Assembly: GCA_043823085.1 (NCBI GenBank)
Contig: JBDRBE010000004.1
Location: 5,510-69,509 of the forward strand
Reading direction: 5' to 3'
Length of the DNA: 64,000 nucleotides
DNA from: Candidatus Levyibacteriota bacterium
GTDB taxonomy: Bacteria; Patescibacteriota; Microgenomatia; Levybacterales; UBA12049
Positions 3,264-31,532 of the stretch are shown here, one piece after another (position 1 is the first letter of the stretch; the number at the start of each line of letters is the position of its first letter). The position numbers and the translations under genes are program-made. A model generated the notes under the pieces. It ran no database searches, was not told where the DNA came from, and worked only from the letters and a program-made list of their open reading frames with translations.

Positions 3264-4028
3264 GTGAATAAAATTTATCTCTCTATTGTTATTCCTTGCT
3301 TTGATGAAATGACAAATCTTCAAAAAGGAGTTTTGGATAAGGTTGAGCACTTTTTGAATAAAAAGAATTATCTTTGGGAAGTTATTGTAGTTGATGATGG
3401 TTCAAAAGACGGGAGTATTGATTTTTTAGAACAATTTATCAGGGAAAATCCAAAGTTTAGAATGATGAAAAATTCTCATCTTGGGAAAGCGGGAGCTGTA
3501 ACAGCCGGGGTTTTGGATTCGAAAGGGGAATATATTCTTTTTACAGATATGGATCAGGCTACTCCAATTGAAGAAGTTGAAAAGCTTTTGCCATATTTCG
3601 ATGAAAAAAATGGGAATTTTGATGTGGTAATTGGATCAAGAGATACAAAGCGTAAAGGTTCACCATTAACACGTCTTATTATTTCAAGGGCGGCCATTAT
3701 ATTAAGGAAACTTCTTATTGGAATGAATGAGATCTCAGATACCCAGTGTGGTTTTAAGGCGTTTAAAAATGATGTTGCAAAGCAATTATTTACAAAAGTC
3801 AAAAATTTGCACAATGGATTTAGAAAGATATCAGGATCAGCTGTAACTGCAGGATTTGATATTGAGCTTTTATATCTTTCGGAAAAGCTAGGTTATAAAA
3901 TCAAAGAAGCTCCGGTTAATTGGCTATATGTGGAAACAAGGAGGGTAAATCCAATTAAAGATTCAATAGAGGGGTTAGTTGATTTAATCAGGATAAAGAT
4001 AAACGATATTAGAGGAATTTATAAGTGA
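3264..4028 (+). CDS. Family-2 glycosyltransferase, Dpm1/GtrB/CsbB-like polyprenyl-phosphate sugar synthase
   Basis: GTG start. Motifs SIVIPCFDE..VIVVDDGSKDGS..TDMDQ..GSR and QCGFKAF indicate a DPM1-like GT2 fold. Confidence 0.8.
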   Translation: MNKIYLSIVIPCFDEMTNLQKGVLDKVEHFLNKKNYLWEVIVVDDGSKDGSIDFLEQFIRENPKFRMMKNSHLGKAGAVTAGVLDSKGEYILFTDMDQATPIEEVEKLLPYFDEKNGNFDVVIGSRDTKRKGSPLTRLIISRAAIILRKLLIGMNEISDTQCGFKAFKNDVAKQLFTKVKNLHNGFRKISGSAVTAGFDIELLYLSEKLGYKIKEAPVNWLYVETRRVNPIKDSIEGLVDLIRIKINDIRGIYK

Positions 4029-5197
4029 AGGTAAAATTGTTATTAATTGGTTATTTAATAGTTATTGTTGGATTATTTTTTTATTCTTTTACCCAGGTTG
4101 ATCTTGGTTTAACATTGACACGCTGGTCTCCTTGGCAAGTGGCGCAGAAATTTTTTCAAAGCATCGGTTATTTCAATAGGCCTTTGTCGGCAGTTTTATA
4201 TATTGCCATCGTTTTCCTTCTTTTTCTTTTTTATCTTTTGTTTTTATGGCTTTCTGTCAAGAAAAAAATAGCCAAAAAAGAGATTTGGACAGTAATAATT
4301 ATCACAAGTGTTATCTTAGGTTTTTCCTATAATGCTTTCTCCTATGATTTATTTAATTATATTTTTGACGCAAAAATTGTAACTTTTTATCATCAAAATC
4401 CATATTTGCATAAAGCTCTTGATTATCAGGGAGATGCGATGCTTTCTTTTATGCATTGGACGCACAGAGTCTACCCCTACGGGCCCGTTTGGTTAGGATT
4501 AACTGCTCCTTTATCGTTTTTAGGACTTCAGTTTTTTTTGCCTACGTTCTTTTTATTTAAATTCCTTTCAGTTGCTTCATTTCTGGGAACGGCTTTTTAT
4601 ATTTCGAAAATTTTAAAAAAAATATCTGCGGAAAACGAGCTTCACGGTATAGTCTTTTTTGCCCTTAATCCGCTGGTTATAATTGAAAGTCTAGTATCTG
4701 GCCATAATGATACTGCGATGATGTTTTTGTCAATAATGGCATTATATCTAATTATGAACATGAAATATTTTCGTTCAATTTTAGTACTCGGATTATCAAT
4801 CGGAGTTAAATTCGCTACGATTTTCCTAGTTCCTATTTTTATACTATTATTTTTATCTAAAAAGATAAAAAAAGAAATTAGCTGGCGGCAAGTGTCATTC
4901 TTGTTAATTGTTCTAATGATTATTCCAGTTTTTATTGCATCGCTACGGACAAATTTTCAGCCATGGTATTTACTTTATGTACTGCCTTTTGCCTCATTGC
5001 TTTCGAAAAAGTATTTTATTTTGATTCCGTCAATTATAATATCTTTCTTTTCTCTTTTAATGTACGTACCTTTTTTGTATTCAGGCAATTGGAATCCTCC
5101 TGTTCCCACGATATTATTCTGGATAGTATTGAGTTCAATCATTGTTTCTCTTTTTATTACCTCTATTTACTCTCTTGCCGCAAATAGAGTAAAATAA
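4025..5197 (+). CDS. Polytopic membrane protein, candidate GT-C glycosyltransferase (paralog of 43458-44603)
   Basis: 390 aa, more than 10 TM segments. Shares the NPLVIIESLVSGHNDTAMMFL block with the 43458 gene. GTG start overlaps the upstream stop by 4 nt. Confidence 0.6.
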   Translation: MKVKLLLIGYLIVIVGLFFYSFTQVDLGLTLTRWSPWQVAQKFFQSIGYFNRPLSAVLYIAIVFLLFLFYLLFLWLSVKKKIAKKEIWTVIIITSVILGFSYNAFSYDLFNYIFDAKIVTFYHQNPYLHKALDYQGDAMLSFMHWTHRVYPYGPVWLGLTAPLSFLGLQFFLPTFFLFKFLSVASFLGTAFYISKILKKISAENELHGIVFFALNPLVIIESLVSGHNDTAMMFLSIMALYLIMNMKYFRSILVLGLSIGVKFATIFLVPIFILLFLSKKIKKEISWRQVSFLLIVLMIIPVFIASLRTNFQPWYLLYVLPFASLLSKKYFILIPSIIISFFSLLMYVPFLYSGNWNPPVPTILFWIVLSSIIVSLFITSIYSLAANRVK

Positions 5198-5203
5198 ATT
5201 AAA

Positions 5204-6727
5204 ATGAATTTAAATTTTTTCAAAAAATATCGCATAGAAATAATTCTTTTTATTATAGCTTCCTTTCTTTTTTTCGCCTCTAGACTTTTTAAGCTTGATT
5301 CTTTACCAATTTTTACAGATGAAGCAATTTATCTCCGCTGGTCGCAAATTGCAAAGCAGGATGCCGCTTGGAGATTTATTTCTTTAACCGACGGTAAACA
5401 ACCGTTTTTTATTTGGCTTTCGATGATTTTTATGCGTTTTATAAAAGATCCGCTGATTGCGGGAAGAATGGTCTCTGTAATGGCCGGATTTTTCTCAATG
5501 ATCGGTCTTTTCTTTTTAGGCAGAGAAATTTTTAAAAACAGATGGGTTGGGATTATTTCTTCCTTTCTCTATGTCATTCTTCCTTTTTCTTTGGTCTATG
5601 ATCGCATGGCGCTTTATGATAGTCTTGTTGGGACTTTTGCCGTTTGGGGTTTATATTTTGAAATCTTACTAATCAGAAAACTTCGTTTTGATTTAGCTCT
5701 TATTCTCGGAATGATTTTGGGAGGAGCGGTTTTAACAAAAACTTCAGGATTTTTTGGAATTTATCTTCTTCCTTTTTCACTCTTGCTATTTAACTTCTCC
5801 AAGAAAGATAATCTTAGTAAGTTTCTCAAGTGGATTGTTTTGGCTATTATTGTTGTAATTTTTGTTTATGTTTATTATTCGGTTCTAAGACTTTCTCCGT
5901 TCTTCCATATAATTGATGAAAAAAATGCAATTTTTGTTTATCCTTTTAAAGACTGGTTAGCGCACCCATTTAATTATTTGTGGGGGAATTTAGTTGGTCT
6001 TTGGGATTGGTTTATTACTTATTTAACTTGGCCTATTTTTGCTCTTATCATTATTTCTTTATTTTTTTACCGTTCTTATTTTAGAGAAAAATTATTATTG
6101 TTGGTTTGGTTTTTGGCGCCCTTTTTTGCATTAGCGCTTTTTGGCAGAACTCTTTATCCCCGCTTTATCTTTTTTATGGTTCTTTCTCTTTTGCCTCTGG
6201 TTGCTCTTTCAATTTATCACGTGAGCCAATTAATCAAGAATCGTTTAATTTTTGTTATTTTTATTTTGTTAATTGGCGTATTTTCTCTTTATTCTGGTTT
6301 TTATATTCTAACAGATTTTTCAAAAGCGCCGATTCCAAATGCAGATAGAACGCAATATTTTAGCGGATGGTCTTCCGGTGTCGGCGTAAAAGAAGCGGTA
6401 GCCTACTTTAAAGACGAGGCAAAAAAGGGCCCAATCTATATTGCAACGCAAGGGACTTTTGGTTTAATGCCATATTCGCTTGAGATTTATCTTGATGAAA
6501 ATACAAATGTAAAAATTACAAGTTTTTGGCCGATTCCCGATAATATTCCAAAGGAATATTTGGATGCAAGTAAAAAGATGCCAACGTATCTTGTTTTTTA
6601 CCAGCCCTGCTATTCTTGCATGGGGACTGGTCTTGCTCCAGCGATCTGGCCGCTTGAAGAGATAATTAAAATTAATAAAGTAGAGCCAGGAATTTATTTT
6701 AGTGTTTATAAAGTGACGCCAAGATGA
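5204..6727 (+). CDS. GT-C fold membrane glycosyltransferase-like protein (ArnT/PMT-like, DE motif)
   Basis: 507 aa. N-terminal TM followed by an FTDEAIYLRW loop (the DE motif of GT-C first periplasmic loop), many TM segments and a C-terminal soluble domain. Confidence 0.6.
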   Translation: MNLNFFKKYRIEIILFIIASFLFFASRLFKLDSLPIFTDEAIYLRWSQIAKQDAAWRFISLTDGKQPFFIWLSMIFMRFIKDPLIAGRMVSVMAGFFSMIGLFFLGREIFKNRWVGIISSFLYVILPFSLVYDRMALYDSLVGTFAVWGLYFEILLIRKLRFDLALILGMILGGAVLTKTSGFFGIYLLPFSLLLFNFSKKDNLSKFLKWIVLAIIVVIFVYVYYSVLRLSPFFHIIDEKNAIFVYPFKDWLAHPFNYLWGNLVGLWDWFITYLTWPIFALIIISLFFYRSYFREKLLLLVWFLAPFFALALFGRTLYPRFIFFMVLSLLPLVALSIYHVSQLIKNRLIFVIFILLIGVFSLYSGFYILTDFSKAPIPNADRTQYFSGWSSGVGVKEAVAYFKDEAKKGPIYIATQGTFGLMPYSLEIYLDENTNVKITSFWPIPDNIPKEYLDASKKMPTYLVFYQPCYSCMGTGLAPAIWPLEEIIKINKVEPGIYFSVYKVTPR

Positions 6728-9132
6728 GAAAAGAATTTTTCTGGGCGTTTTTATTTTTTATCATCGTTTCTCTGTTTTTTTTCTATCCTCTGTTTGGGGG
6801 ATTTATTCCTTTCCCGGGAGATAATTTAGTTGGTAATTTTGGTCCTTACGATTCATTATCTTATGGTAAATATGGTCCTGGGGCGGTTCCAAATCTTGCC
6901 CAAGGACCCGATGTTATCCGGGAACTTTTTCCTTGGAAAAATTTTGTTATCGAAAGTTTCAAGCAATTTCAAATTCCTTTTTGGAATCCGTATAATTTTT
7001 CAGGTAACCCCTTAATGGCCAATTTTCAAAGCGGTGCGTTTTATCCTCTTAATTTGGTTTTTTTAATATTCAATTTTTTAAACGGCTGGTCGATTTTTAT
7101 TCTTCTTATCCCAGTTTTGGCTGGTATTTTTACTTATCTTTTTCTTCGGGAACTTAGCCTTTTAAAGTTAGCGAGTGTTTTTGGAGGAATTGTTTTTGCC
7201 TTTTCTTCCTACATGGTTGTGTGGATGGAATATGGTAACGTTGGACATACATTTCTTTGGCTGCCTCTTGGTCTCTTTTTTACAGAAAAGTTAATAAAAA
7301 AAACCAATTATAAATATATTTTCTTTTTAGTCATGGTTTTATTTTTTGCTCTTCTTGCCGGTTATATTCAAGGATATATTTATTCAATCGCAATAGTTAT
7401 TTTTTATTATCTTCTAAAAAATATTTTAGCAAGAAAATTTTCTTTCAAAAAAACCATTTTGTTTTTGACAAGCGTTTTAATTTTTCCATTGGGATTAGCA
7501 TTGTTTCAAATTTTACCAACTCTTGAATTGTTTTCTAATTCTTCAAGAGGAAGTTATAGCTTTGAACAGACTATCAAAATCTTAAATCCATTTTGGTATT
7601 TTATTACGACAGTTGCTCCTGATTTTTTTGGTAATCCGGCAACGAGAAATCACTGGTTTTTGGGAACATATATAGAAAAGGTGTCCTATTTCGGCCTTAT
7701 TCCTTTGATATTGGCAATAAGCGCGGTTTTCAATTTTAAAAAAAGAAAAGAGATTGCCATTTTTGGAGCATTACTTATTTTAAGTTTTATTTTGGCAACA
7801 GATTTATTTTTCAACCGAATCGTTTATCTTTTTCCAATTCCAATAATTTCTACAATGGTTCAAACGAGAATTTTAAGCATTTTTGTTTTTTCCGGGAGTA
7901 TTCTTTCTGCTTTCGGGTTTAATTTTTTTCTAAAAAAAGATAACAAAAAAGGTCTTTGTTTATCATTTACTTTAATTTCAGTCTTAATTTTTATCGCATG
8001 GGTTTTTGTATTCTTAATGCCAAAAATTTTTCCCCAAGAAAATTGGACTCAAAATTTAGCAGTTGCCAAAAGAAATCTTATTTTACCTTCAATTTTTCTT
8101 CTTTGTTTTTTAATTCTGTCAGTAAGCTACTTGAAGATATTCAAGAAGTCGTATCTTATCAAAATAATAATTATTTTGATATTTTTACTGACTTTGTTTG
8201 ATCTTTTCCGTTTCTTTCAAAAAATTACGCCTTTTTCGCCAAAAGATTATGTTTATCCAAGTACACCGGTCATAGATTATCTAAAGAAAAATGGTTCACT
8301 TTATCGTTTCTGGGGTTATGGCAGCGGTTATGTTGACAGTAATTTCCAAACATATGATCACACCTTTTCACCGGAGGGGAATGATCCGATTCATATTAAA
8401 AACTATACGGAATTTTTATCTTCGTCCAAAGATGGAACTCTACCTTCTATTCTTCCTCGCCCCGATGCAAATATCGCATCGGGTTTTAGTCAGACAGACC
8501 TCAATGATAATAATTTTCGGCAGAAAGTTTTAAATATTTTGGGAGTGAAATATATTTTAAATAAAAGCAATCTATTATCAAATAATTTTCAACCCGATAA
8601 CATAACTTTTCCGCAAACAAAATATAAACTAATTTGGCAAAATGCCCCCTGGCAAATTTATGAAAATTTAAAAGTAGTTCCGCGTGTTTTTTTGACAACG
8701 AATTATATTGTTGTGCAGGACAAAAAAGAAATCCTTAAGAAATTCTATTCCAAAGATTTTGATGAATCAAAGAAAATTATTCTGAATGAAGACCCTCGTT
8801 TATTAATTAATAATAACTCGCTCTCAAAAGCTGCGATTATTTCTTACGAGCCAAACAAAGTTGTTGTCCAAACAAGCTCCAATAGTAACGCTTTGCTTTT
8901 TCTTTCCGATACTTATTACATATCATGGAAAGCAAAAGTTGATGAAAATGCAACCAAAGTTTATTTAGCAGATTATACTTTTAGAGCAGTTGCTGTTCCA
9001 AAAGGAGAACACAAAGTAACTTTTTATTTTGAATCAGACTCGTTTAAAAAAGGGTTAGTTTTATCCGGCATAATTTTTATTCTTTTTATAACTTTTATAA
9101 TCTTTATAAAGAGGCAAAAAAATTATGAATAA
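6724..9132 (+). CDS. YfhO-family large membrane protein (GT-C superfamily) A1
   Basis: 802 aa. N-terminal block D..REL(F)PW..FWNPYNFSGNPLMANFQSG and C-terminal block YLADYTFRAVAVPKGEHKVTFYF followed by a C-terminal TM. Paralog of 19853, 23551 and 29047. Confidence 0.7.
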   Translation: MRKEFFWAFLFFIIVSLFFFYPLFGGFIPFPGDNLVGNFGPYDSLSYGKYGPGAVPNLAQGPDVIRELFPWKNFVIESFKQFQIPFWNPYNFSGNPLMANFQSGAFYPLNLVFLIFNFLNGWSIFILLIPVLAGIFTYLFLRELSLLKLASVFGGIVFAFSSYMVVWMEYGNVGHTFLWLPLGLFFTEKLIKKTNYKYIFFLVMVLFFALLAGYIQGYIYSIAIVIFYYLLKNILARKFSFKKTILFLTSVLIFPLGLALFQILPTLELFSNSSRGSYSFEQTIKILNPFWYFITTVAPDFFGNPATRNHWFLGTYIEKVSYFGLIPLILAISAVFNFKKRKEIAIFGALLILSFILATDLFFNRIVYLFPIPIISTMVQTRILSIFVFSGSILSAFGFNFFLKKDNKKGLCLSFTLISVLIFIAWVFVFLMPKIFPQENWTQNLAVAKRNLILPSIFLLCFLILSVSYLKIFKKSYLIKIIIILIFLLTLFDLFRFFQKITPFSPKDYVYPSTPVIDYLKKNGSLYRFWGYGSGYVDSNFQTYDHTFSPEGNDPIHIKNYTEFLSSSKDGTLPSILPRPDANIASGFSQTDLNDNNFRQKVLNILGVKYILNKSNLLSNNFQPDNITFPQTKYKLIWQNAPWQIYENLKVVPRVFLTTNYIVVQDKKEILKKFYSKDFDESKKIILNEDPRLLINNNSLSKAAIISYEPNKVVVQTSSNSNALLFLSDTYYISWKAKVDENATKVYLADYTFRAVAVPKGEHKVTFYFESDSFKKGLVLSGIIFILFITFIIFIKRQKNYE

Positions 9133-10669
9133 AAAAACACTTTTAATTTTATTTCTTGTTTTTGTAATTTCTCTTCCTGCGATAGTTTTTCTTTTACAAA
9201 AGGGATTTTTTTTGACAGACGATGGAGAGTGGATGGTTATAAGATTTTCCGCTTTTCATCAGGCGCTGCGCGATGGCCAATTCCCCGTTAGGTTTTTGGG
9301 ACGATTAAATTATGGCTATGGATATCCTGTTGCAAATTTCTTATATCCGGGTTTTATGTATATGGCGGAAATTCCTAAAATTTTGGGTTTTGGTTTTGTC
9401 AATTCAATAAAAATAATTTTAGGCTTATCAATGGTCACTTCTGCCATTTTTACATATCTATGGTTGTCAAAATTATTTAATAGAATATCAGCTATTATCG
9501 GTTCTCTTTTCTATCTTTATACTCCTTATCATCTTTTCGACCTTTATAAAAGGGGATCAATCGGTGAAATTCTAGCGTTTTCAATAATTCCTTTTATTCT
9601 TTGGCAGATAGAGCGAAAGAGCCTATTTTGGATAGCGATAGGAATTTCATTTCTAATTCTTTCTCATAACACGCTGGCTCTGCTTTTTGTGCCAGTAATT
9701 TTTCTTTATTGTTTTTTAGGTAAACTATTTTCTATACGCCATACGCTATTTGCCATTCTTATTGGTCTTGGTCTTTCTTCATTTTTTATCATTCCTGTAT
9801 TTTTTGAACTTTCTTATACGCAATTTTCAAATATTCAAATATCAAATTTTAAAAACTATTTTGCACCGTTTGAATTGATTGGTGTTTCGACAATTTTCAT
9901 TTTAATTTTTGCCTCGTTATCTATATTTGATATTTTACAGAAAAAGAATTGGATAAAGCAAAATATTAATAAATTGTTTTTTTTGATGGCTTTTGTAGCT
10001 TTGCTAAGTATTGTTTTAAGCACAAAAGCGAGTCTAATCCTGTGGAATTTTATTCCTGCCTCTCTTGTTCAATTTCCGTTTAGATTCTTGTCTTATCTTC
10101 CGGTATCTCTGGCATTTATCGCAGGGTTTGTCGCTTTTCACTTCAAAGGTAAAAAGCAAATTATTGTTTGTTCAATTTTATTAGTTTCATTGATTTTTTC
10201 AGCCTATTTATTTTTGAAGCCTTCGCAAGTTTTTGATAAAGGGGAAGGATTTTATGCAACAAACGAGGCGACAACTACTGTGCAGGATGAATATATGCCA
10301 AAGTGGGTGAAGAGTAAACCTGCAAAACATTTTGATCAGAAGGTAGAAATAATTAAAGGAAAAGGAAATATCAATGATATTGTTTATAACTCAAAAAATG
10401 TTGGGTTCAATATTCAATCGACAGAAAACACAAAGGTTAGAATAAACACTATTTATTATCCGGGATGGAAAGCGTTTATCAACGGAAAAGAATCAGCGAT
10501 TGAATACAACAATGATTTTGGCGTAATGGATTTATCAATTCCAAAAGGGGAGCATAAGATTGAGTTTAATTTCTCCGAAACTCCTCTTCGTCTATTTGCC
10601 GACATAATTTCAATTTTATCTTTGCTCACGTTGTTTTTGGTCACAAAAATTTATAAGTCTAAGTTCTGA
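9125..10669 (+). CDS. YfhO-related large membrane protein, family B (HDG..H..R / GYGYP N-terminus, YYPGW..PKGEH C-terminal module) B1
   Basis: 514 aa. TDDGEWMVIRF...FPVRFLGRLNYGYGYPVANFLYP, many TM segments, C-terminal IYYPGWKAFINGKE...IPKGEHKIEF plus a terminal TM. Possibly the PTPS-related membrane family (unverified). Confidence 0.6.
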   Translation: MNKKTLLILFLVFVISLPAIVFLLQKGFFLTDDGEWMVIRFSAFHQALRDGQFPVRFLGRLNYGYGYPVANFLYPGFMYMAEIPKILGFGFVNSIKIILGLSMVTSAIFTYLWLSKLFNRISAIIGSLFYLYTPYHLFDLYKRGSIGEILAFSIIPFILWQIERKSLFWIAIGISFLILSHNTLALLFVPVIFLYCFLGKLFSIRHTLFAILIGLGLSSFFIIPVFFELSYTQFSNIQISNFKNYFAPFELIGVSTIFILIFASLSIFDILQKKNWIKQNINKLFFLMAFVALLSIVLSTKASLILWNFIPASLVQFPFRFLSYLPVSLAFIAGFVAFHFKGKKQIIVCSILLVSLIFSAYLFLKPSQVFDKGEGFYATNEATTTVQDEYMPKWVKSKPAKHFDQKVEIIKGKGNINDIVYNSKNVGFNIQSTENTKVRINTIYYPGWKAFINGKESAIEYNNDFGVMDLSIPKGEHKIEFNFSETPLRLFADIISILSLLTLFLVTKIYKSKF

Positions 10670-10704
10670 ATAATTCCGCTTCATTTAGTATAATAATAGG
10701 TAGC

Positions 10705-12423
10705 ATGAACTTATTGAGAAGAAATTTTGGGTTGATTGTCGTTCTCCTTTTGTCAATTCTTTCCATTTTGCCGCTTTTTCATTCAGGACTTTTTCCAATA
10801 CATGATGATACGCAGGTTGCCAGGGTTTATGAGATGGGCAAGAGCTTAGGAGACGGAATGTTTCCGGTTAGATGGGTGGCGGATCTTGGTTATGGTTACG
10901 GCTATCCGATTTTTAATTTTTACGCCCCATTTGCTTATTACATTGGAGGATTGTTTACTCTCTTGGGTTTTGATGCGCTTATTGCTACAAAGATAATGAT
11001 GGGGCTAGGAGTTATTTTTTCCGGAGTTTTCATGTATCTTTTAGCAAAAGAATTTTGGGGAGAAATTGGCGGTATTACGGCTGGCTTATTCTATGTTTTT
11101 GCGCCATATCATGCGCTTGATATTTATGTTAGGGGAGACGTGGGGGAATACTATGCCTATGCATTTATCCCATTAGTCTTCTTGGGGCTACATAAAGTTT
11201 TTAAAGAAGCTAATCGTAATAAATTAAATATCAAATGGATTGCAGTTGGTGCCTTTGGATACGCCGGACTTATCACGTCGCACAATCTTACGGCGATGAT
11301 GGTAACACCATTTCTTATAATTGTTCTATTATTCTATTATTCTATTGTTTGTAGGAAGAAAGAACTATCCGCTATCAACTATCCGCTATGTGTTATTTTC
11401 TTCGGTTTATTATTGTCAGCATTTTATTGGCTTCCAGTATTTTTGGAAATGAAATATACCAATGTTTTATCGCAAATTGGCGGTGGAGCGGATTTTCGTG
11501 ATCATTTTATTTGTGTTGGGCAGCTTTGGGATAGTCCGTGGGGATTTGGGGGATCGGCAAAAGGTTGTATCGATGGCTTATCTTTTAAAATCGGTAAATT
11601 ACACTTACTAATAGTTTTGGTTTTATTAATATTTAGCGTTTGGAGTACATTCAAGAGGAAATACTTAAATGATATATATCATTTAAGTGAGGAGACGGCG
11701 GCCATATTTCTTTCTGTTATTGGTTTAATCTTATTGATTTTTTTAACACTGGAAATATCAAAGCCGGTTTGGCACGCGATTCCTCTCATGGCGTTTTTTC
11801 AATACCCTTGGAGATTTTTATTGTTGATATCATTTTTCTCTTCATTTCTGGCTGGCTCAATTTTCTGGTACTTAAAAAAACTTAATTTCTTAGCAATTTT
11901 TGTGTCATTCTTTTTGATTTTTATTTTAATTTTTTTCAATCTTAAGTTATTTTCGCCTCAAAATTTTAATCTCAAAAATGCCAGCGATTATACAAATGAA
12001 ATTGCATTAAAATGGGTAACTTCAAGAGTTTCGGATGAATATATGCCAAAGGATTTTTTTAAGCCCAAATCTTTTGAACAGATTTCTACGAAAATAATTT
12101 CAAGCGAAGATAAACCAATAATTATTAATGTTTTGTCTTCAAAAACGCAAAGTTTTACGGCAAAAGTCTATGCTTTGGATCATGCGTCTGTATTGTTAAA
12201 TATCGCATATTTTCCGGCATGGAATGTTTTTATCGATGAAAAAGTGTTTAATTATCAAATAACAAATCAAGGATTACGTATCGAATTTCCAAAAGGAGAA
12301 CATAATCTGACTGTTAAATTTATTGAAACGCCAATAGAAAGAATTAGTAATATTTTATCTCTGATTGGTATTACGGTTATTATTATTGGTATAATCTATG
12401 CAAGAAAGAGGTCTGTTTCGTGA
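10705..12423 (+). CDS. YfhO-related large membrane protein, family B (B2)
   Basis: 572 aa. HDDTQVARVYEM...FPVRWVADLGYGYGYPIFNFYAP; C-terminal YFPAWNVFIDEK...FPKGEHNLTVKF. Confidence 0.6.
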   Translation: MNLLRRNFGLIVVLLLSILSILPLFHSGLFPIHDDTQVARVYEMGKSLGDGMFPVRWVADLGYGYGYPIFNFYAPFAYYIGGLFTLLGFDALIATKIMMGLGVIFSGVFMYLLAKEFWGEIGGITAGLFYVFAPYHALDIYVRGDVGEYYAYAFIPLVFLGLHKVFKEANRNKLNIKWIAVGAFGYAGLITSHNLTAMMVTPFLIIVLLFYYSIVCRKKELSAINYPLCVIFFGLLLSAFYWLPVFLEMKYTNVLSQIGGGADFRDHFICVGQLWDSPWGFGGSAKGCIDGLSFKIGKLHLLIVLVLLIFSVWSTFKRKYLNDIYHLSEETAAIFLSVIGLILLIFLTLEISKPVWHAIPLMAFFQYPWRFLLLISFFSSFLAGSIFWYLKKLNFLAIFVSFFLIFILIFFNLKLFSPQNFNLKNASDYTNEIALKWVTSRVSDEYMPKDFFKPKSFEQISTKIISSEDKPIIINVLSSKTQSFTAKVYALDHASVLLNIAYFPAWNVFIDEKVFNYQITNQGLRIEFPKGEHNLTVKFIETPIERISNILSLIGITVIIIGIIYARKRSVS

Positions 12424-13133
12424 ATAAAAGAGTACCCGAGCTTTCAATTTTTTTTCCCTTTTGGAATGAGGAAAAAAATATAGAAAAAGTTGTTAGGAAT
12501 GCCATTCCTGTAGCCGAAAAAGTGGCTTTGAAATGGGAAATTATTATGATAGATGACGGATCGTCCGATAAAACACTTAAGATTTGTCAAAAACTAGCTA
12601 GGGAAAATAATCATCTTCGGGTAATTTCACACAAGCCAAACAGAGGATATGGTGCCGCACTTAAAGAAGGATTTGAAAACGCAAAATACGATTTGGTTGT
12701 TTTTAATGACGGTGATGGGCAATTTGATTTTTCGCAAGTGAATAAATTTATTGAGAAAATAGATGATGCGGATATGGTTATTGGTTTTAGAAAAAAACGT
12801 TTAGACAATCCCTTCAGACATTTCTTAATGAATCTTCTAAAGATTTGGGATGCTGTATTTTTTGGATTCTATTTTCGCGATATCGATTGCGGTTTTAAAT
12901 TATTTAAAAAAAGAGCCTTACAGAGAATGGAGCCTTTTATGTCAGAAGGAGCGATGATAACAACCGAAATTTTGGCAAAAGCAAAGAAGAGCAAGATGAA
13001 AATTTTGGAAGTTGAAGTTTCTCATTTTCCAAGAAAATATGGCGATCAAAGCGGAGGGAATCTTAGAGTTATTGTTCGGGCAATTAAAGAGAGTTTTAAT
13101 TTATGGAATAATTTAAATTATGGAAGAGCTTGA
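12420..13133 (+). CDS. Family-2 glycosyltransferase, Dpm1-like
   Basis: GTG start overlapping the upstream stop (GTGA). Motifs FFPFWNEE..IIMIDDGSSDKT..NDGDGQFD (DXD region) and CGFKLF. Confidence 0.75.
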   Translation: MNKRVPELSIFFPFWNEEKNIEKVVRNAIPVAEKVALKWEIIMIDDGSSDKTLKICQKLARENNHLRVISHKPNRGYGAALKEGFENAKYDLVVFNDGDGQFDFSQVNKFIEKIDDADMVIGFRKKRLDNPFRHFLMNLLKIWDAVFFGFYFRDIDCGFKLFKKRALQRMEPFMSEGAMITTEILAKAKKSKMKILEVEVSHFPRKYGDQSGGNLRVIVRAIKESFNLWNNLNYGRA

Positions 13134-14574
13134 TATCAGTTTAATAAAAAAAAGGTCTATTCAGGGTGTTTTTGCTCTCGTTTCAAGAACTTTTTTTATT
13201 CAGGTAATTAGTTTTGGCGTTAATTTTCTTTTGACGATTTTTCTATCACCTGCGATTTTTGGTGTTTATTTTATTGTTACGGCAGTCATTTCTTTTTTAA
13301 CATATTTTTCTGATATTGGTCTTGCTGCGGCACTAATCCAAAAGAAAGATGCTTTGACCCAAGAAGATCTTAAAACAACTTTTACTTTACAACAAGTGTT
13401 AGTTGTTTCGATTTCTCTAGTCGCACTTTTTTCCTCTGGCTGGATTGGAAAGTTTTACAATCTTAATTTAGAAGGCGTTTGGCTTTTTAGAGCGTTGGTA
13501 ATTGCCTTTTTTCTCTCCTCTCTAAAAACAATTCCCTCCGTTATTATGGAAAGAAATCTTCGATTTCAAAAATTTGTCATTCCTCAAGTTGTCGAAACAC
13601 TTTTTTTTAATGCAACGGTTTTATTTTTTGCAATTAAAGGATTTGGTATTACAAGTTTTACCTATGCAGTTTTGGCCAGAGGAATTTCTGGAGTGATCAC
13701 CATTTACATCGTTTCGCCTTGGAGGATAAAATTTGGTTTTTCTAAAAGTGCGGCCAGGAAACTCCTTTCTTTTGGGATACCATTTCAGACAAACAGCCTT
13801 TTGGCTTTACTTAAAGATGATTTATTAACTGTATACCTTGGAAAAATTTTGCCTCTTGCCCAAGTTGGCTATATTGGTTTTGCCCAAAAGTGGGCACTAA
13901 CTCCTTTAAGGCTAATTATGGATAATATTATTCGCATTACTTTTCCATCTTTTTCTAGGCTTCAACATGAAAAAAAAGTTTTGAGTCAGGCTTTGGAAAA
14001 ATCCTTATTTGCCTCGACTTTTTTTATTTTTCCATCAATTCTTGGATTAGTTATACTTTTTAGTTATCTTATTGCATTAATTCCAAAATATAATAAATGG
14101 GAACCGGCGCTTTTTTCTCTTTCTTTTTTCGCTATCAATGCGGCTCTCTCGTCTATATCAACGCCATTAACAAATGCTTTAAATGCAATCGGTAAAATAA
14201 AAATAACTCTTTTTTTGATGATTTTTTGGGTTATTGCGACTTGGATTTTAACTCCATTTGCTATCTTTTTATTTGGTTTTAATGGAGTTTCGATGGCCTC
14301 GGCCTTTTTATCAATCTCAGTAATAATAGTTGTCTTCCTTGTCAGAAAGTTTGTAGAATTTGATATATTTAAATCAGTGGGATATCCTTTCTTGGCATCT
14401 ATTGTTATGGCGGTTTTTCTTTATTTTTTAAGTCCTATTATTGTAAAAAATATTGCAATGTTAATTATTATGATAATTGCTGGTGCACTTATTTATTTTA
14501 TGACGATTTTCCTTTTGGCAAAAAACCAACTGTTGGCAGATATAAGATTAATAAGAGAAAACTTGAGGAGATAA
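13120..14574 (+). CDS. Wzx-like oligosaccharide/polysaccharide flippase (MOP superfamily)
   Basis: 484 aa, about 12-14 TM segments. N-terminus ...FALVSRTFFIQVISFGVNFLLTIFLSPAIFGVY...GLAAALIQKKD is typical of Polysacc_synt/Wzx proteins. Confidence 0.7.
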   Translation: MEELDISLIKKRSIQGVFALVSRTFFIQVISFGVNFLLTIFLSPAIFGVYFIVTAVISFLTYFSDIGLAAALIQKKDALTQEDLKTTFTLQQVLVVSISLVALFSSGWIGKFYNLNLEGVWLFRALVIAFFLSSLKTIPSVIMERNLRFQKFVIPQVVETLFFNATVLFFAIKGFGITSFTYAVLARGISGVITIYIVSPWRIKFGFSKSAARKLLSFGIPFQTNSLLALLKDDLLTVYLGKILPLAQVGYIGFAQKWALTPLRLIMDNIIRITFPSFSRLQHEKKVLSQALEKSLFASTFFIFPSILGLVILFSYLIALIPKYNKWEPALFSLSFFAINAALSSISTPLTNALNAIGKIKITLFLMIFWVIATWILTPFAIFLFGFNGVSMASAFLSISVIIVVFLVRKFVEFDIFKSVGYPFLASIVMAVFLYFLSPIIVKNIAMLIIMIIAGALIYFMTIFLLAKNQLLADIRLIRENLRR

Positions 14575-14575
14575 A

Positions 14576-15487
14576 ATGAATAAAATTTCGGCAGTTATAA
14601 CCTGTTTTAATGAGGAAAAAAAGATAAAAGATTGTTTGGAGTCAGTCCTTTGGGCAGATGAGATTATTTTGGTTGATAATTCATCGAAAGACAAAACAGT
14701 CGAGATTGTAAAGAAATATACAAAAAATATTTTTAACCAAGAAAACGATCCTGGTGCGATAGATATTTTAAAGAATTTTGGTTTTTCTAAAGCAAGTAGC
14801 GAGTGGATTTTAAGTCTTGATGCCGATGAGAGAGTAACGCCTGAATTAAGAAAAGAAATTGAATCAACAATCAACAACCAGCAATCAGCAATCAACGGCT
14901 ACTGGATTCCGAGAAAAAATATTATTTTTGGTAAATGGATAGAACATACCGGTTGGTATCCTGATTTTCAATTAAGATTGTTTCGAAAAGGGAGAGGAAA
15001 GTTTATTAAGAAACATTTTCATGAAATGCTTGAACTTAATGGTAAAACTGAAAATCTTAATTCTAATTTACTGCATTATAACTATGAAAGTGTTCTGCAG
15101 TTTTTAAACCGTCATGCCAATATTTATGCGCAAAATGAAGTAGAGAATATTTTGGAAAAAGGTTATATTTTTAATTATCTTGATGCAATTCGTTTCCCTT
15201 TTAACGAATTTTTAAGTAGATTTTTCAAAAGAGAAGGATACAAAGATGGGATTCACGGATTAGTGCTTTCGCTTCTAATGGCTTTTTATCATTTGATTAT
15301 CTTTTCGTTAATTTGGGAGAAAGAGAAATTCAAAGAATTGGAAAAAGAAAATATTCTTAAGGCAACGGAAAATGAGTTCAGAAAAGAGTGTAAAGATATT
15401 GGGTTTTGGTTCTTAAATGAGAAGATAAAACAAACGGGCAACCTATTTAGCAAATTTCGGTTAAAAGTAAAACGTAAGTTTTTTTGA
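14576..15487 (+). CDS. Family-2 glycosyltransferase, WaaE/KdtX-like
   Basis: Motifs SAVITCFNEE, ILVDNSSKDKT, SLDADERVTPEL, NGYWIPRKN and WYPDFQLRLFRKG. Paralogs at 19099 and 41143. Confidence 0.75.
   Translation: MNKISAVITCFNEEKKIKDCLESVLWADEIILVDNSSKDKTVEIVKKYTKNIFNQENDPGAIDILKNFGFSKASSEWILSLDADERVTPELRKEIESTINNQQSAINGYWIPRKNIIFGKWIEHTGWYPDFQLRLFRKGRGKFIKKHFHEMLELNGKTENLNSNLLHYNYESVLQFLNRHANIYAQNEVENILEKGYIFNYLDAIRFPFNEFLSRFFKREGYKDGIHGLVLSLLMAFYHLIIFSLIWEKEKFKELEKENILKATENEFRKECKDIGFWFLNEKIKQTGNLFSKFRLKVKRKFF
14862..14896. repeat. Imperfect heptanucleotide tandem repeat (aatcaac/aaccagc/aatcagc, 5 units) inside a GT2 CDS
   Basis: 7-nt periodicity over 35 nt, read directly. Encodes STINNQQSAING just before the NGYWIP motif. 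Confidence 0.6.
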
Positions 15488-15488
15488 T

Positions 15489-16181
15489 ATGCTCTCAAAA
15501 CTTAGTCGAATTTTATCTTGGAAATTAATTTTTGTTTTAATTTTTATTAATTTGGCTATTTTAGACTACTTAGCAATCACAGGCATTAATTCTTTTGTAG
15601 AACTTAAAAATCAGATACTCAAGAATGCAAGCATTGTATTGCCAGAAATCGAACAGGTAAAACCAAGCGTTATTTCAACTCCTGCAACAGACGAATCATG
15701 TTCTTTGTCCTGCATAACAAAAATAAATGAAGCTATGTCTTCGTTAAAGCTTTCCTCGCCAACTTCAAAAATTGTTCCTACTTCGCCGTTAAATAATACT
15801 CCTCAATTTTCGTCGCAAGTCAAGGAATTTTTTATTCCGTTTGGTTCAGGGACGAATTCGACAGATGATTGGGCAGATGTTTCGGGTCTTGCGGCAACAA
15901 TAGATACAACACAATATAATCAGATAAAAAGTGCATATTTTGAAGTATCCCTTCGAATACCAACCGGAAATGAAAAAGCTTATGCGAGGCTTTATAATGC
16001 AACGGACAAACACCCTGTCTGGTTTTCGGACGTTTCTATAGAAGGAGGGACTCCGCAGCTTGTAATTTCAAATCCAATTATACTCGATGCTGGTAAAAAA
16101 CTTTACCAGGTCCAAATGAAAACAAGCCTTAAATATCCAGCATTAATCGATCAGGCAAGAGTGCATATTAATACCTATTAG
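15489..16181 (+). CDS. Hypothetical membrane-anchored protein with Ser/Thr/Pro-rich linker
   Basis: N-terminal TM (LIFVLIFINLAIL), then S/T/P-rich low-complexity segment (PSVISTPATDESCS...SSPTSKIVPTSPLNNTPQFSS), then a beta-rich C-terminal domain. Confidence 0.5.
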   Translation: MLSKLSRILSWKLIFVLIFINLAILDYLAITGINSFVELKNQILKNASIVLPEIEQVKPSVISTPATDESCSLSCITKINEAMSSLKLSSPTSKIVPTSPLNNTPQFSSQVKEFFIPFGSGTNSTDDWADVSGLAATIDTTQYNQIKSAYFEVSLRIPTGNEKAYARLYNATDKHPVWFSDVSIEGGTPQLVISNPIILDAGKKLYQVQMKTSLKYPALIDQARVHINTY

Positions 16182-17141
16182 ATGAAAAAAATCGCAATCG
16201 TTATCCTTCATTTTAATGGAGAAAAAGATACACTTCGATGCTTAGATAGTATTGAACAGTTATCCTGCGAAGCAGGATCTCGCTTCGCGAGGCAAGTTAT
16301 CGTGGTTGATAATGGATCAGATGAAGAATTCAAAGTTCCCGCCTTCGCCCCTTCGACTCCGCTCAGGGCTTCGGCGGGCAAACAAAATTCAATTAAGGAA
16401 GTAAAAGTTATTAGGAATGAAAGAAACTTGGGGTTTGCGGGTGGAAATAATGTCGGAATCAAATACGCGCTTGAAAATGGGGCGGATTACGTTCTAATTC
16501 TCAATAATGATACTTTAGTTGATAAAGGTTTGATTACGGAATTATTAAAAGTTGCAGATTCCGATGAAAAGATTGGAATTGTTGCTCCTAAAATATATTT
16601 TGCCAAAGGATTTGAATTCCATAAAGACCGATACCGTGAAAGCGAACGCGGTAGAATAATTTGGTATGCGGGAGGGATCATGGATTGGAAAAATATTATT
16701 GGGCATCATCGGGGAGTTGATGAGGTTGATAAAGGTCAGTTTGAAAAAGTAGAAGAAACGGATTATGCTACCGGTTGTTGCATGTTAATAAAAAAAGAAG
16801 TATTCGAAATGATAGGCTTTTTGGATAAAAAATATTTTTTATATTATGAAGATAGTGATTTCAGCCAAAGATCAAAATTAGTAGGGTATAAAATAAAATT
16901 TGTCCCAAAAGCGATTGTTTGGCACAAAAATGCGGGTTCGGCCGGAGGTTCGGGTTCTTCAATGCAGGATTATTATATAACTCGAAACCGTTTAATTTTT
17001 GGAATAAAATATGCTTCTCTTAGAGCGAAGTTGGCTTTAATAAAAGAAACCATCAAATTGTTTTTTTCCGGAAGACCGTGGCAAAAAAGAGGTGTTTTTG
17101 ATTTTTATTTAATGAAATTTAATAAAGGCAGTTACCGATAA
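16182..17141 (+). CDS. Family-2 glycosyltransferase (rhamnosyltransferase-like; paralog of 57373) carrying GC-rich in-frame insertions
   Basis: Motifs AIVILHFNGE..VIVVDNGSDE..NLGFAGGNN..ILNNDTLV; C-terminal YYEDSDF. Compared with the 57373 paralog it has extra GC-rich segments at 16265-16294 and 16334-16385. Confidence 0.75.
   Translation: MKKIAIVILHFNGEKDTLRCLDSIEQLSCEAGSRFARQVIVVDNGSDEEFKVPAFAPSTPLRASAGKQNSIKEVKVIRNERNLGFAGGNNVGIKYALENGADYVLILNNDTLVDKGLITELLKVADSDEKIGIVAPKIYFAKGFEFHKDRYRESERGRIIWYAGGIMDWKNIIGHHRGVDEVDKGQFEKVEETDYATGCCMLIKKEVFEMIGFLDKKYFLYYEDSDFSQRSKLVGYKIKFVPKAIVWHKNAGSAGGSGSSMQDYYITRNRLIFGIKYASLRAKLALIKETIKLFFSGRPWQKRGVFDFYLMKFNKGSYR
16258..16301. repeat. GC-rich palindromic in-frame insertion (ctgcgaagcaggatctcgcttcgcgaggca) flanked by 7-bp direct repeat agttatc
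   Basis: Two short hairpins (cctgc-gaa-gcagg; ctcgc-ttc-gcgag) in an AT-rich gene, with agttatc on both sides. Encodes SCEAGSRFARQ, which the paralog lacks. Confidence 0.6.
16327..16392. repeat. GC-rich in-frame insertion (cccgccttcgccccttcgactccgctcagggcttcggcgggc) flanked by direct repeat aattcaa
   Basis: Terminal inverted cccgcc/ggcggg. Shares cccttcgact...ctcagg with the intergenic element at 26779-26834. Encodes PAFAPSTPLRASAGKQ, which the paralog lacks. Confidence 0.55.
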
Positions 17142-17144
17142 AAA

Positions 17145-19094
17145 ATGTTTTTAAATTTCCTCGCAGTTTTTTTTAATTTCTTTTATTTTTTAATTGCAAT
17201 CTTTTTTGCTTTATATATTCCGGGAAATATTCTAAATAATAAAATTCTTCATGTCTTTGGAAGTAAATTTGAAAAAATCGTAGTTAATTTAATAGTTGGC
17301 TTAGTTTTATGGAGTTATCAAGGTTTTATTTTTGGATTTTTAGACTTAAGATTTTTATCATATTTTTATCTTGTGTTTTTCTTTTATCTTTGGGTTAGAA
17401 ATAAATCAATAAAAAATCTTAAGTCTCAACTGTTCGGTCTTATTAAAATAAAGCCAAATTATTTTCTTGCTGCAATTTTTATTTTAGGAATTTTTGGACA
17501 GGTTCAGCAATTTTTAATAACAGGATGGTCCTTTTCCAAAGGAATTTTTATTTTAACCGCATCAAGCGATGATGCTTTTTGGCATGCATCGCTTATCAAT
17601 CAAATTGTAAGCAGATTTCCTCCGATTGAACCTGGTTTGTCCGGAGTTTTAGTTCGTAACTATCATTATTTATCGAATTTAACTATCGCCGAATTCGTTA
17701 GGGTTTTTAATCTTCCGCTTCTTCCAACGCAATTTATTTATAGCTACTTATTAATTTCATTTCTTCTTGGTGCGGTAGCTTATGTGTTGGCGAAAACATT
17801 GAATTTTTCAAAAATAGGTATAATTTTACTTGTTTATTTTCAGTATTTTAATTCTGACATAATATATTTATTAACATTAGCTACGAGAAGATTAGTTGAG
17901 TTTAAAGTCTCTCCATTAGAAGATGGAACAATGCTTTTGGAAAATCCACCGAGAGCTTTTTCCTATGTTGTTTTACTTGCAGGAATTATTTTTCTTTTTT
18001 ATTGGTTGAAAACTAAAAATCTAAGATTCGGAATACTAATGGCATTGCTTTTTGGTTCATTAATTGGATTTAAGGTTAATACAGGAGTGCCTGCTCTTTT
18101 AGGTCTTTCTTTGCTTGGAATTTATTTTATCTTAAAGAAGGAAGTGAAAATGGTTTTTGTGCTTTTATTAACTGTATTTATAAGTTTTTGTATTTATTTA
18201 CCCGTAAATAGAGAAGCGGGATTTTTATTATTTGCACCTTTTGAAATGTCCAGAATGTTTATTGTTCAGCCTGGTTTAAATATCAGCCATTTTGAGCTAG
18301 CCAGAAGAATATATGCCAGTCATTTTAATTTTCTCCAGTCGATTAGAATGGATTTAACAATTTTTATTATTTTTTTCGTTTCCCAATTTGGAATTGCCAA
18401 TATTGGTTTTATTGCCGTTAAAAATATGCTTTTAAAATTTAACAAGCTTTTTGTGTTATTTATATATAGCACTATTTTATTTTCTATTATTTTGGGTACA
18501 TTTTTTATCCAGCCGGTAGCATTTTCTGATATTTTTAATTTTTATCTTACTTCAAGCCTGCTTTTATTTATCCCTTCGGCTTTTATATTGAGTTCGTTAT
18601 TTTTAAATAAAAGTAAATTATTAAAAGTGTCGGTTATAATCTTGATTTTACTTATGACAGTTCCTCGTTGGATCAATAAAACGCAATCTTTCGCAGGTTA
18701 TTTCAATTTAAATACGCCGGCTATTCCAAGAAATGAGCTTGATGCAATGCAATCTCTTCAAGATTTGACAAAATCAAATGAAATAGTATTAGTTTTTAAT
18801 AAAGGCCAGTGGGATTCGATGTATCCTTATGTAAGTATATTTACAAAAAGAGACATGTTTTTATCAGGACAAACAATTTTGTCAAGACATAGTATTCCTT
18901 TTGAAGATAGGGCAAAAATCGTAGAAAAAATAATTTCAAGTAAAGATATGGTTGAAATTAGAGGGATATTGATAGAAAATAAGATTGGCATCCTATATTT
19001 TTACGGCGAACCAAATTTATCTATAGATATTTCTAAAGTAGGAGTAAAGACGATTTTTAAAAACAATGCTATTAGCATTTATAGAGTAATTTAA
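17145..19094 (+). CDS. Large polytopic membrane protein, candidate GT-C (paralog of 44608-46482)
   Basis: 649 aa, more than 12 TM segments. The block HASLINQIVSRFPPIEPGLSGVLVRNYHY aligns with HVPFIRSFSLGNNFPAEVPFFANNGLIYHF in the 44608 gene. Confidence 0.55.
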   Translation: MFLNFLAVFFNFFYFLIAIFFALYIPGNILNNKILHVFGSKFEKIVVNLIVGLVLWSYQGFIFGFLDLRFLSYFYLVFFFYLWVRNKSIKNLKSQLFGLIKIKPNYFLAAIFILGIFGQVQQFLITGWSFSKGIFILTASSDDAFWHASLINQIVSRFPPIEPGLSGVLVRNYHYLSNLTIAEFVRVFNLPLLPTQFIYSYLLISFLLGAVAYVLAKTLNFSKIGIILLVYFQYFNSDIIYLLTLATRRLVEFKVSPLEDGTMLLENPPRAFSYVVLLAGIIFLFYWLKTKNLRFGILMALLFGSLIGFKVNTGVPALLGLSLLGIYFILKKEVKMVFVLLLTVFISFCIYLPVNREAGFLLFAPFEMSRMFIVQPGLNISHFELARRIYASHFNFLQSIRMDLTIFIIFFVSQFGIANIGFIAVKNMLLKFNKLFVLFIYSTILFSIILGTFFIQPVAFSDIFNFYLTSSLLLFIPSAFILSSLFLNKSKLLKVSVIILILLMTVPRWINKTQSFAGYFNLNTPAIPRNELDAMQSLQDLTKSNEIVLVFNKGQWDSMYPYVSIFTKRDMFLSGQTILSRHSIPFEDRAKIVEKIISSKDMVEIRGILIENKIGILYFYGEPNLSIDISKVGVKTIFKNNAISIYRVI

Positions 19095-31467: not shown

Positions 31468-31532
31468 TTTAGGATTTGCAATGATTTTAATATTATAATA
31501 AAGTAAATATATCATAAGTTCTTGCCCGAGTC

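Follow-up and report, generated by a model that had tools for sequence, protein, structure and literature searches.

PF10131 proteins of a Patescibacteria glycosylation island as probable short relatives of the YfhO glycosyltransferases

Four paralogous membrane proteins, encoded in a 64,000-nucleotide stretch of a Candidatus Levyibacteriota genome (contig JBDRBE010000004.1; the whole stretch is called the window here), are probably GT-C glycosyltransferases of Pfam family PF10131. They can be envisioned as a "short YfhO," with an outward-facing active site, a tethered beta-sandwich, and a mechanism that uses lipid-linked sugars, and they most likely decorate the cell surface of this Patescibacteria (candidate phyla radiation, CPR) bacterium. 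These proteins, called group B, are real paralogs within a catalogued, uncharacterized, and misleadingly named family of membrane glycosyltransferases; they are not a new kind of protein but ordinary members of an experimentally untouched family. What is added here is a refined sequence motif, a register with YfhO, the short-YfhO architecture, and a conserved gene cassette. Open reading frames (ORFs) are named by their first window coordinate, and EL1 denotes the first extracytoplasmic loop. The group B genes are:

9125-10669, plus strand: B1, 514 amino acids, PF10131 at 35.0 bits; EL1 motif T-D-D-G-x-W-M-x-I-R, no His; gene 1 of a tandem pair
10705-12423, plus strand: B2, 572 amino acids, PF10131 at 42.5 bits; EL1 motif H-D-D-T-Q-V-x-R; gene 2 of the tandem pair
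39489-41132, plus strand: B3, 547 amino acids, PF10131 at 30.2 bits; followed by a GT2 gene (41143-41910)
46460-48100, plus strand: B4, 546 amino acids, PF10131 at about 66-67 bits; YfhO-type C-terminal module; modeled with AlphaFold

The four proteins match one another over nearly their full length (BLASTP E 4e-51 to 4e-76, 30-33% identity), and each exceeds the 26.4-bit gathering threshold of PF10131 ("PTPS_related"; 30-66 bits), the family at which the initial annotation of this DNA had correctly guessed. PF10131 is a member of the Pfam GT-C clan (CL0111), function unknown (PMC7801869). It also matches 70 of 76 diverse relatives of group B, among which PMT_2 is found weakly in 21 and the YfhO C-terminus in 20. 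With a profile of the four paralogs, 22,164 clusters (50% identity) are retrieved at E <= 1e-3 and 7,220 at E <= 1e-30. Coverage of the 621-position Pfam model is partial: group B matches positions 1 to about 301-318 only, beginning at protein residues 70-95, downstream of the EL1 signature. The model omits what is probably the catalytic Asp, together with the C-terminal module that group B has in common with YfhO. Searches of NCBIfam gave only weak C-terminal matches, to PgfM1/PgfM2, and sequence searches of the Protein Data Bank with ORF 46460, the four-paralog profile, and YfhO ORF 19853 gave nothing meaningful.

All four proteins are named "6-pyruvoyl-tetrahydropterin synthase-related protein" by NCBI. 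Identity as a pterin synthase was rejected, the PTPS domain itself (PF01242) being listed neither for the four proteins at E <= 1 nor for the 76 relatives at E <= 0.001, and the name is a misnomer. No well-characterized family with a function other than glycosyl transfer matches group B. The proposal that these proteins form a poorly described GT-C subfamily is upheld as far as GT-C type, relation to YfhO, and poor description are concerned; the suggestion that the family is a "second," new one is not, as an existing Pfam family already supplies the names of the NCBI records.

Structural modeling points in the same direction. The AlphaFold model of 46460 has a predicted local distance difference test score (pLDDT) of 90.9 and a predicted template modeling score (pTM) of 0.92, and its Foldseek matches among solved structures, with E values to about 1e-3 and probability 1.00, are all GT-C enzymes: AglB (E 1.5e-5), AftD, ArnT (5f15, 2.5e-4), STT3, PglB, and AftA. 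Helices and hydropathy together predict 12 transmembrane (TM) helices for group B, with both termini inside, in the cytoplasm. EL1 comprises residues 25-94 with a helix at 35-50, which fits the GT-C layout of 7-13 TM helices and a structured loop after the first of them (TM1), and the motif falls in this loop, as had been proposed. Lys and Arg account for 11 of the 29 residues of short inside loops, against 4 of the 40 residues of short outside loops. Each of the 41 positions with a conservation of at least 85% lies in an outside loop or an outer helix half, including D34, R41, R57, K97, R144, E149, H189, E242, and R351; in the model, this outward distribution has the look of an outward-facing GT-C active site. 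The extracytoplasmic C-terminal region of 46460 is about 125 residues long (393-518), of which about 70 lie in a beta-sandwich of seven strands (445-513), and an anchoring helix follows (517-545).

The closest point of reference is found within the window itself, where four further proteins, group A, carry the NCBI name "YfhO family protein." They are listed here with the C-terminal module of B1:

6724-9132, plus strand: YfhO paralog, 802 amino acids, PF09586 at 102.6 bits; directly upstream of B1
19853-22198, plus strand: YfhO paralog, PF09586 at 100.9 bits
23551-25830, plus strand: YfhO paralog, PF09586 at 72 bits; without the terminal TM anchor
29047-31515, minus strand: YfhO paralog, PF09586 at 100 bits; the sole group A gene on the minus strand
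10361-10669, plus strand: C-terminal beta-sandwich (YYPGW...PKGEH) and terminal TM anchor of B1, common with YfhO (19853 against 9125, BLASTP E 1.9e-12)

BLASTP, alignment, and the 46460 model bear out the earlier description of group B as four paralogs with an N-terminal block, a C-terminal YxPGW...KGxH module, and a terminal hydrophobic helix; the description of group A as YfhO-like proteins with the same module is likewise borne out by PF09586 (72-103 bits) and by the match of 19853 to 9125. As a common end of all eight proteins, module plus anchor holds for seven: ORF 23551 stops right after its beta-module ("...PKGTHMIEFSDSLF"). An alternative ATG upstream of 23551, at 23455, would give that protein 32 more N-terminal residues.

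The two groups had been thought to share only this module, and that view has to be given up. Their membrane cores are homologous. Using hhalign, the two paralog sets align at 99.5% (E 2e-23) over about 290 columns of membrane core, and deep 123-sequence profiles align at 97.9% (E 5e-13), from "YPRW...GFGVP" of group B and "IPFW...FSGNP" of YfhO onward; BLASTP of 6724 against 39489 extends over 376 amino acids (E 2e-9). The PF09586 model itself does not match the core of group B, only the last 80 or so residues (profile positions 746-835), where 46460 scores about 38 bits (38.8) against a cut-off of 28.5, 39489 scores 20.3, 10705 is below threshold, and 9125 has no match. An AlphaFold model of 6724 (pLDDT 92.8) retrieves the same GT-C set as 46460, and its C-terminus has the group B pattern of strands (701-769) and helix (772-797). 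Both models also give small partial matches to accessory beta-sandwiches of glycoside hydrolases and aminopeptidase N.

In the tandem pair, the EL1 signature of group B occupies:

9218-9328, plus strand: EL1 signature of B1, residues 32-68, DDGEWMVIR...FPVRF...GYGYP; has the invariant Asp, Arg, P-R-(W/F), and G-x-P
10801-10908, plus strand: EL1 signature of B2, residues 33-68, HDDTQVAR...FPVRW...GYGYP

The signature first written as HDGxxHxxR marks a real block in an over-specified form. Conservation was assessed in 142 group B representatives at most 50% identical to one another, with the numbering of ORF 46460. It reaches 99% at D34 (140 of 142), G67, and P69, 98% at R57, 96% at R41, 92% at G52 and L62, 87% at H33, and 82% at W58; the Gly of "HDG" is a mostly-gap column, and the second His is present in 33 of the 142, Gln being the most frequent residue there (74 of 142). 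Orthologs of ORF 9125 (80 species) read T-D-D-G-x-W-M-I-I-R and have neither His, with D32/D33 in 79 of 80 and R40 in all 80. Orthologs of ORF 10705 read H-D-D-T-Q-V-x-R (H33 73/74, D34 74/74, Q37 73/74, R40 74/74). As read from these alignments, the universal core is D...R...G...P-R-W...L...G-x-P, and the first His is common and dispensable. Since both His positions are replaceable, the metal site once suggested here is unlikely as a feature of the family, at least one built on His.

In all likelihood the invariant EL1 Asp corresponds to the catalytic Asp of GT-C enzymes in general. D34 of 46460 lies on the outside face, 10 residues after TM1, and directly precedes the EL1 helix (35-50) in the AlphaFold model; in solved GT-C enzymes, the proposed catalytic Asp follows TM1 (PMC11127046). 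YfhO also has an invariant Asp, D63 in 6724 (found in 56 of 56 orthologs, and without exception in the 123-sequence alignment), at which the EL1 helix of the 6724 model begins (63-80). The spacing from Asp to Trp is 23 or 24 in 141 of the 142 group B representatives and 24 in all four window YfhO paralogs, and the order strand-strand-helix-helix after the Asp is alike in the 46460 and 6724 models, with a near-constant offset. Given the invariant YfhO Asp, the equal spacing, and the matching order of secondary structure in two independent models, the invariant Asp of the two families appears to sit in the same position. The N-terminus of group B does differ from that of YfhO upstream of P-x-W, as had been noted; from P-R-W on it aligns with YfhO, with the Asp in register. 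Rather than "replacing" the DE motif of related enzymes, the motif is better described as the form that the acidic residue following TM1 takes in this lineage.

Genomic context provides the third line of evidence. The relevant features are:

3264-17141, plus strand: conserved cassette, in the order GT2, GT87-like membrane protein, PMT_2, YfhO, B1, B2, GT2, Wzx, GT2, ORF 15489, GT2 (assigned with Pfam)
12420-13133, plus strand: GT2 of polyprenyl-phosphate glycosyltransferase type, 237 amino acids, no TM segment, PF00535 at 97 bits
13120-14574, plus strand: Wzx/MOP-type flippase (Polysacc_synt_3), PF13440 at 168 bits

YfhO ORF 6724 and ORF 9125 overlap, stop on start, a gap of 35 nucleotides separates 9125 from 10705, and the GT2 gene 12420 overlaps the stop of 10705 by 4 nucleotides. 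The gene order of the cassette recurs in loci of Levy-, Gottesman-, and Daviesbacteria and other Patescibacteria. It was counted in 80 loci from different species, mostly of the three named lineages, which were picked as relatives of ORF 9125, so that the counts describe that orthologous group only. A B1-type gene is followed by a B2-type gene in 74 of the 80, and the order B1-B2-GT2-Wzx is conserved in 67. A GT2 gene lies 3' of the B1-B2 pair in 67 loci as well, and ORF 12420 is its nearest window GT2 in 51 of these. The best solved relatives of ORF 12420 are ArnC (E 6e-20, residues 6-218), GtrB sll0501 (7e-12), and an archaeal Dol-P-Man synthase, DPMS (9e-12), and from this resemblance the enzyme is the probable maker of a lipid-linked sugar donor.

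Gene fusions occur among the metagenomic relatives. Six of them (P0121-P0124, P0230, and P0253) are giant predicted proteins of 1,093-3,329 amino acids with 2-5 PF10131 modules. P0121 fuses a B1-type and then a B2-type module, and in P0230 a GT2 domain is joined to a B2-type module, each as a single prediction; both are compatible with a topology in which N- and C-termini are inside. The giant proteins could be genuine Rosetta-stone fusions or artefacts of assembly or gene calling.

Group B can be read as glycosyltransferases because of the Pfam match within the GT-C clan, the GT-C fold, the YfhO-homologous core, the outward conserved residues, the adjacent GT2 gene, the conserved gene order, and the GT2 fusion. 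A working scheme would begin with a cytoplasmic GT2 of ArnC/GtrB/DPMS type (12420-13133 in the case of 9125/10705) charging polyprenyl phosphate with a sugar taken from a nucleotide sugar. The lipid-linked sugar would then be flipped, possibly by the adjacent Wzx-type protein, and the PF10131 enzyme would transfer it outside the membrane to a surface acceptor, which may be a glycopolymer or a Ser/Thr-rich protein. The putative catalytic base is the invariant Asp capping the EL1 helix (D34 in 46460, D33 in 9125, D34 in 10705). The donor phosphate may be bound by R41, R57, K97, R144, H189, and R351, and a sugar, metal, or acceptor by E149 and E242; the beta-sandwich probably aids acceptor binding. 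The tandem pair 9125/10705 probably carries out two successive or cooperative transfers. What is inferred in this scheme is which class of donor is used, what each Arg, Lys, His, and Glu does, what the acceptor is, and any action of the pair as a complex.

Several observations weigh against this picture. The matches of 46460 to solved structures are distant, with a TM-score of about 0.40-0.44 and 13% identity. The first half of EL1 is not significantly alignable with YfhO by hhalign (6% for the N-terminal 95 residues, 9% for EL1 alone), one such non-significant alignment sets the two Asp residues four positions apart, and the first 30 or so signature residues are, in that narrow alignment sense, distinct from YfhO. 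A comparison of group B with the window PMT_2 paralogs, which have the classical DE motif, is weak (hhalign, 39%) and does not reach EL1. In the proposed pathway, the GT2 12420 has no counterpart of the C-terminal membrane hairpin of ArnC/GtrB, and Wzx-type flippases usually move diphosphate-linked oligosaccharides. No GtrA match was found among the window ORFs scanned, and ORFs shorter than 150 amino acids inside gene-dense regions were not all scanned. Literature searches on PF10131/PTPS_related yielded no characterized member, only the clan listing (PMC7801869), and similar searches on GT-C enzymes in Patescibacteria/CPR yielded essentially nothing.

The flippase also invites a different reading, in which group B would act like an oligosaccharyltransferase or ligase, taking a complete oligosaccharide, which the many GT2 and GT4 enzymes of the island would have assembled and Wzx flipped, off its polyprenyl-diphosphate carrier and attaching it en bloc to a protein or polymer. 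The cassette does combine a Wzx-type flippase with several soluble GT2 enzymes, neither a Wzy polymerase nor a WaaL ligase domain turned up among the window ORFs scanned, archaeal AglB is the best Foldseek match with STT3 or PglB making up most of the top 20, and 2 of the 76 relatives have weak STT3 Pfam matches. Yet none of the eight window proteins and none of the 142 representatives contains WWDxG, the defining motif of STT3/AglB/PglB, and a strict oligosaccharyltransferase identity is rejected on that ground. Where oligosaccharyltransferases have a large C-terminal domain, group B has a small extracytoplasmic beta-sandwich of about 70 residues; no initiating phosphoglycosyltransferase was detected in the window; the neighbor with the overlapping stop and start, translationally coupled, is ArnC/GtrB/DPMS-like; and the closest relatives in sequence are YfhO enzymes, users of monophosphate-linked single sugars. 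Even in its looser form, en bloc transfer seems unlikely to us.

Very unlikely, in our estimate, is a division of labor within the tandem pair in which one of 9125 and 10705 is the enzyme and the other a non-catalytic partner that binds the acceptor or acts as a scaffold. The retention of the pair in 74 of 80 species would fit such an arrangement, as would the single-ORF fusion P0121, B1-type proteins that have neither motif His, and the speculation in a review that small GT-C enzymes may need acceptor-binding partners (PMC8035078). However, the Asp, the Arg, and the outward set (R57, G67, P69, E149, H189, R351, and others) are 96-100% conserved in both subfamilies, a sign that each of the two is active, and P0121 is a lone metagenomic prediction and possibly an artefact. 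A relation to 6-pyruvoyl-tetrahydropterin synthase, with a role in pterin or queuosine metabolism, draws on the Pfam and NCBI name alone and has next to no probability for 12-helix membrane proteins of GT-C fold within a glycosylation island.

The reading of group B as short YfhO-like glycosyltransferases can also be taken further. The conserved and sometimes fused 9125/10705-type pair might be an obligate two-subunit GT-C enzyme like the Pmt1-Pmt2 heterodimer, forming the core of a Microgenomates-specific assembly line of at least five GT-C enzymes that builds a surface glycan or glycoprotein wholly outside the membrane from lipid-linked single sugars; the "HD/DD...R" loop would then be a distinct catalytic variant of the GT-C active site, lying outside the reach of the present Pfam model. 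We consider this extension rather unlikely.

The setting of these genes deserves description in its own right. The window is AT-rich (about 32% GC), its same-strand genes are tightly packed, and a glycosylation island (3264-63852) spans nearly all of its 64 kb. Sixteen GT-C-type membrane enzymes occupy 44% of the 64 kb: four PF10131, four YfhO, and four PMT_2 proteins above threshold, and, below threshold, three PMT_2-like proteins and one GT87-like protein. The island also holds 11 GT2, 4 GT4, and 3 Wzx-like genes, 3 genes for NAD-dependent epimerases/dehydratases, 2 for DegT aminotransferases, and 1 for a C-methyltransferase. Genomes of this lineage are about 1 Mb in size, belonging to reduced-genome Patescibacteria with an attached, host-dependent lifestyle, and the complete chromosome of a related Levybacteria genome (L010) measures 1,142,061 bp. 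An island so rich in GT-C enzymes is striking because the lineage genomes are only about 1 Mb. Further genes of the cassette and the island are:

4025-5197, plus strand: GT87-like membrane protein, 390 amino acids, nine helices; sub-threshold match to GT87 (18.7 bits, E 0.0015; cut-off 25 bits)
15489-16181, plus strand: protein of 230 amino acids within the conserved cassette, without Pfam match
17145-19094 and 44608-46482, plus strand: large multi-pass membrane proteins of 649 and 624 amino acids, hypothetical proteins at NCBI

In 40 of the 80 loci the GT87-like gene is retained where the cassette begins (as class "memb_unk"); GT87 enzymes are GT-C proteins of PimE type. ORF 15489 has one N-terminal TM helix, a linker (61-120) with 40-43% Ser/Thr/Pro, and a globular C-terminal part. 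Homologs stand at the equivalent position in 6 loci, most loci stopping short of that point. By comparison with the streptococcal targets of YfhO-family enzymes, ORF 15489 could, as a speculation, be a candidate O-glycosylation acceptor. The two large membrane proteins have no Pfam match even at E <= 10 and, when compared with group B and with one another, gave no sign of relatedness; they may represent further unrecognized glycosyltransferase or polymerase families.

Two other observations concern the window and its relatives. Between a Lon protease fragment and the island lies a small pair of genes on the minus strand (870-1461), encoding a PIN-like DUF5615 protein (134 amino acids) and a DUF433 protein (65 amino acids), which looks like a toxin-antitoxin-type module. 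Many records of metagenome-assembled genomes titled "uncultured Gammaproteobacteria bacterium" (L009, L013, L016, L020, and about 35 more) carry a Levybacteria-type cassette at 40-52% identity, and these titles are probably placeholders or wrong taxonomy.

Current understanding is not overturned by these findings on group B. Their practical value lies in annotation: the misleading "6-pyruvoyl-tetrahydropterin synthase-related" name spreads through thousands of genomes, and a usable description of such genes would be YfhO-like GT-C glycosyltransferases with a probable catalytic Asp upstream of the Pfam-matched region. The context is more interesting than the family, in that a YfhO-B1-B2-GT2-Wzx core is conserved across many species. 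The island points to an elaborate, unstudied surface glycan, which may matter for an attached, host-dependent lifestyle.

Among known systems, PF10131 itself is the family whose cut-off group B passes, but the C-terminal module matches the end of the YfhO model instead. With the ArnT/PMT/PMT_2 enzymes (GT83 and GT39; for example, GtlB and GacL), group B has in common the GT-C fold and an acidic residue shortly behind TM1. A proposed further likeness is the donor, a lipid-phosphate sugar supplied by a GT2 of ArnC/GtrB type. Group B differs from them in its C-terminal domain and in having HD or DD, in contrast to the DE/DxxD of the window PMT_2 paralogs (such as "TWDEAAWGY" in ORF 33217). The best PMT_2 score in group B, that of 39489, is 26.0 bits, just under the cut-off of 26.1. 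Equivalence of HD with DE is not shown by alignment, because the PMT_2 profile match is weak and stops short of EL1.

Three-component systems (GtrA/GtrB/Gtr*, CsbB/GtcA/YfhO, GT136) offer a parallel in organization, with a GT2 gene adjoining and overlapping a GT-C gene, a flippase, and conserved order. In such multi-component systems, a GT2 enzyme makes the polyprenyl-phosphate sugar, which is exported by a flippase and then placed on teichoic acids or Ser/Thr-rich protein segments by a GT-C enzyme, YfhO being one example (PMC5836110, PMC8035078, PMC12041528, PMC11127046). The cassette described here departs from this plan in that the flippase found in it is of Wzx/MOP type rather than GtrA type, its GT2 has no membrane hairpin, and several GT-C genes (GT87-like, PMT_2, YfhO, B1, and B2) are strung together where those systems have one.

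The YfhO family (PF09586), which includes YfhO of B. subtilis and S. aureus, Lmo1079 of L. monocytogenes, streptococcal PgtC2, and PgfM1/PgfM2, is like group B in its core. Both have a loop helix capped by an invariant Asp, P-x-W 24 residues on and then G-x-P, a C-terminal beta-sandwich with terminal TM anchor, GT-C structural neighbors, and an adjoining GT2 gene. By genetic evidence, teichoic acid glycosylation and, in streptococci, that of Ser/Thr-rich proteins requires YfhO, which works alongside a GT2 and a flippase (PMC5836110, PMC12041528, PMC8035078), and YfhO enzymes use monophosphate-linked single sugars (PMC5836110, PMC8035078). B. subtilis YfhO has 13 TM helices and a 389-amino-acid extracytoplasmic domain before the last helix (PMC5836110). 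Group B, with 12 predicted helices and about 125 residues before the last one (about 270 in 6724), is shorter by about 250 residues. Three helices (408-501 in 6724) and an alpha/beta extracytoplasmic domain of about 200 residues (505-700 in 6724) have no counterpart in it, and the first half of its EL1 reads HD...R where that of YfhO reads D-V-I-R..PW.

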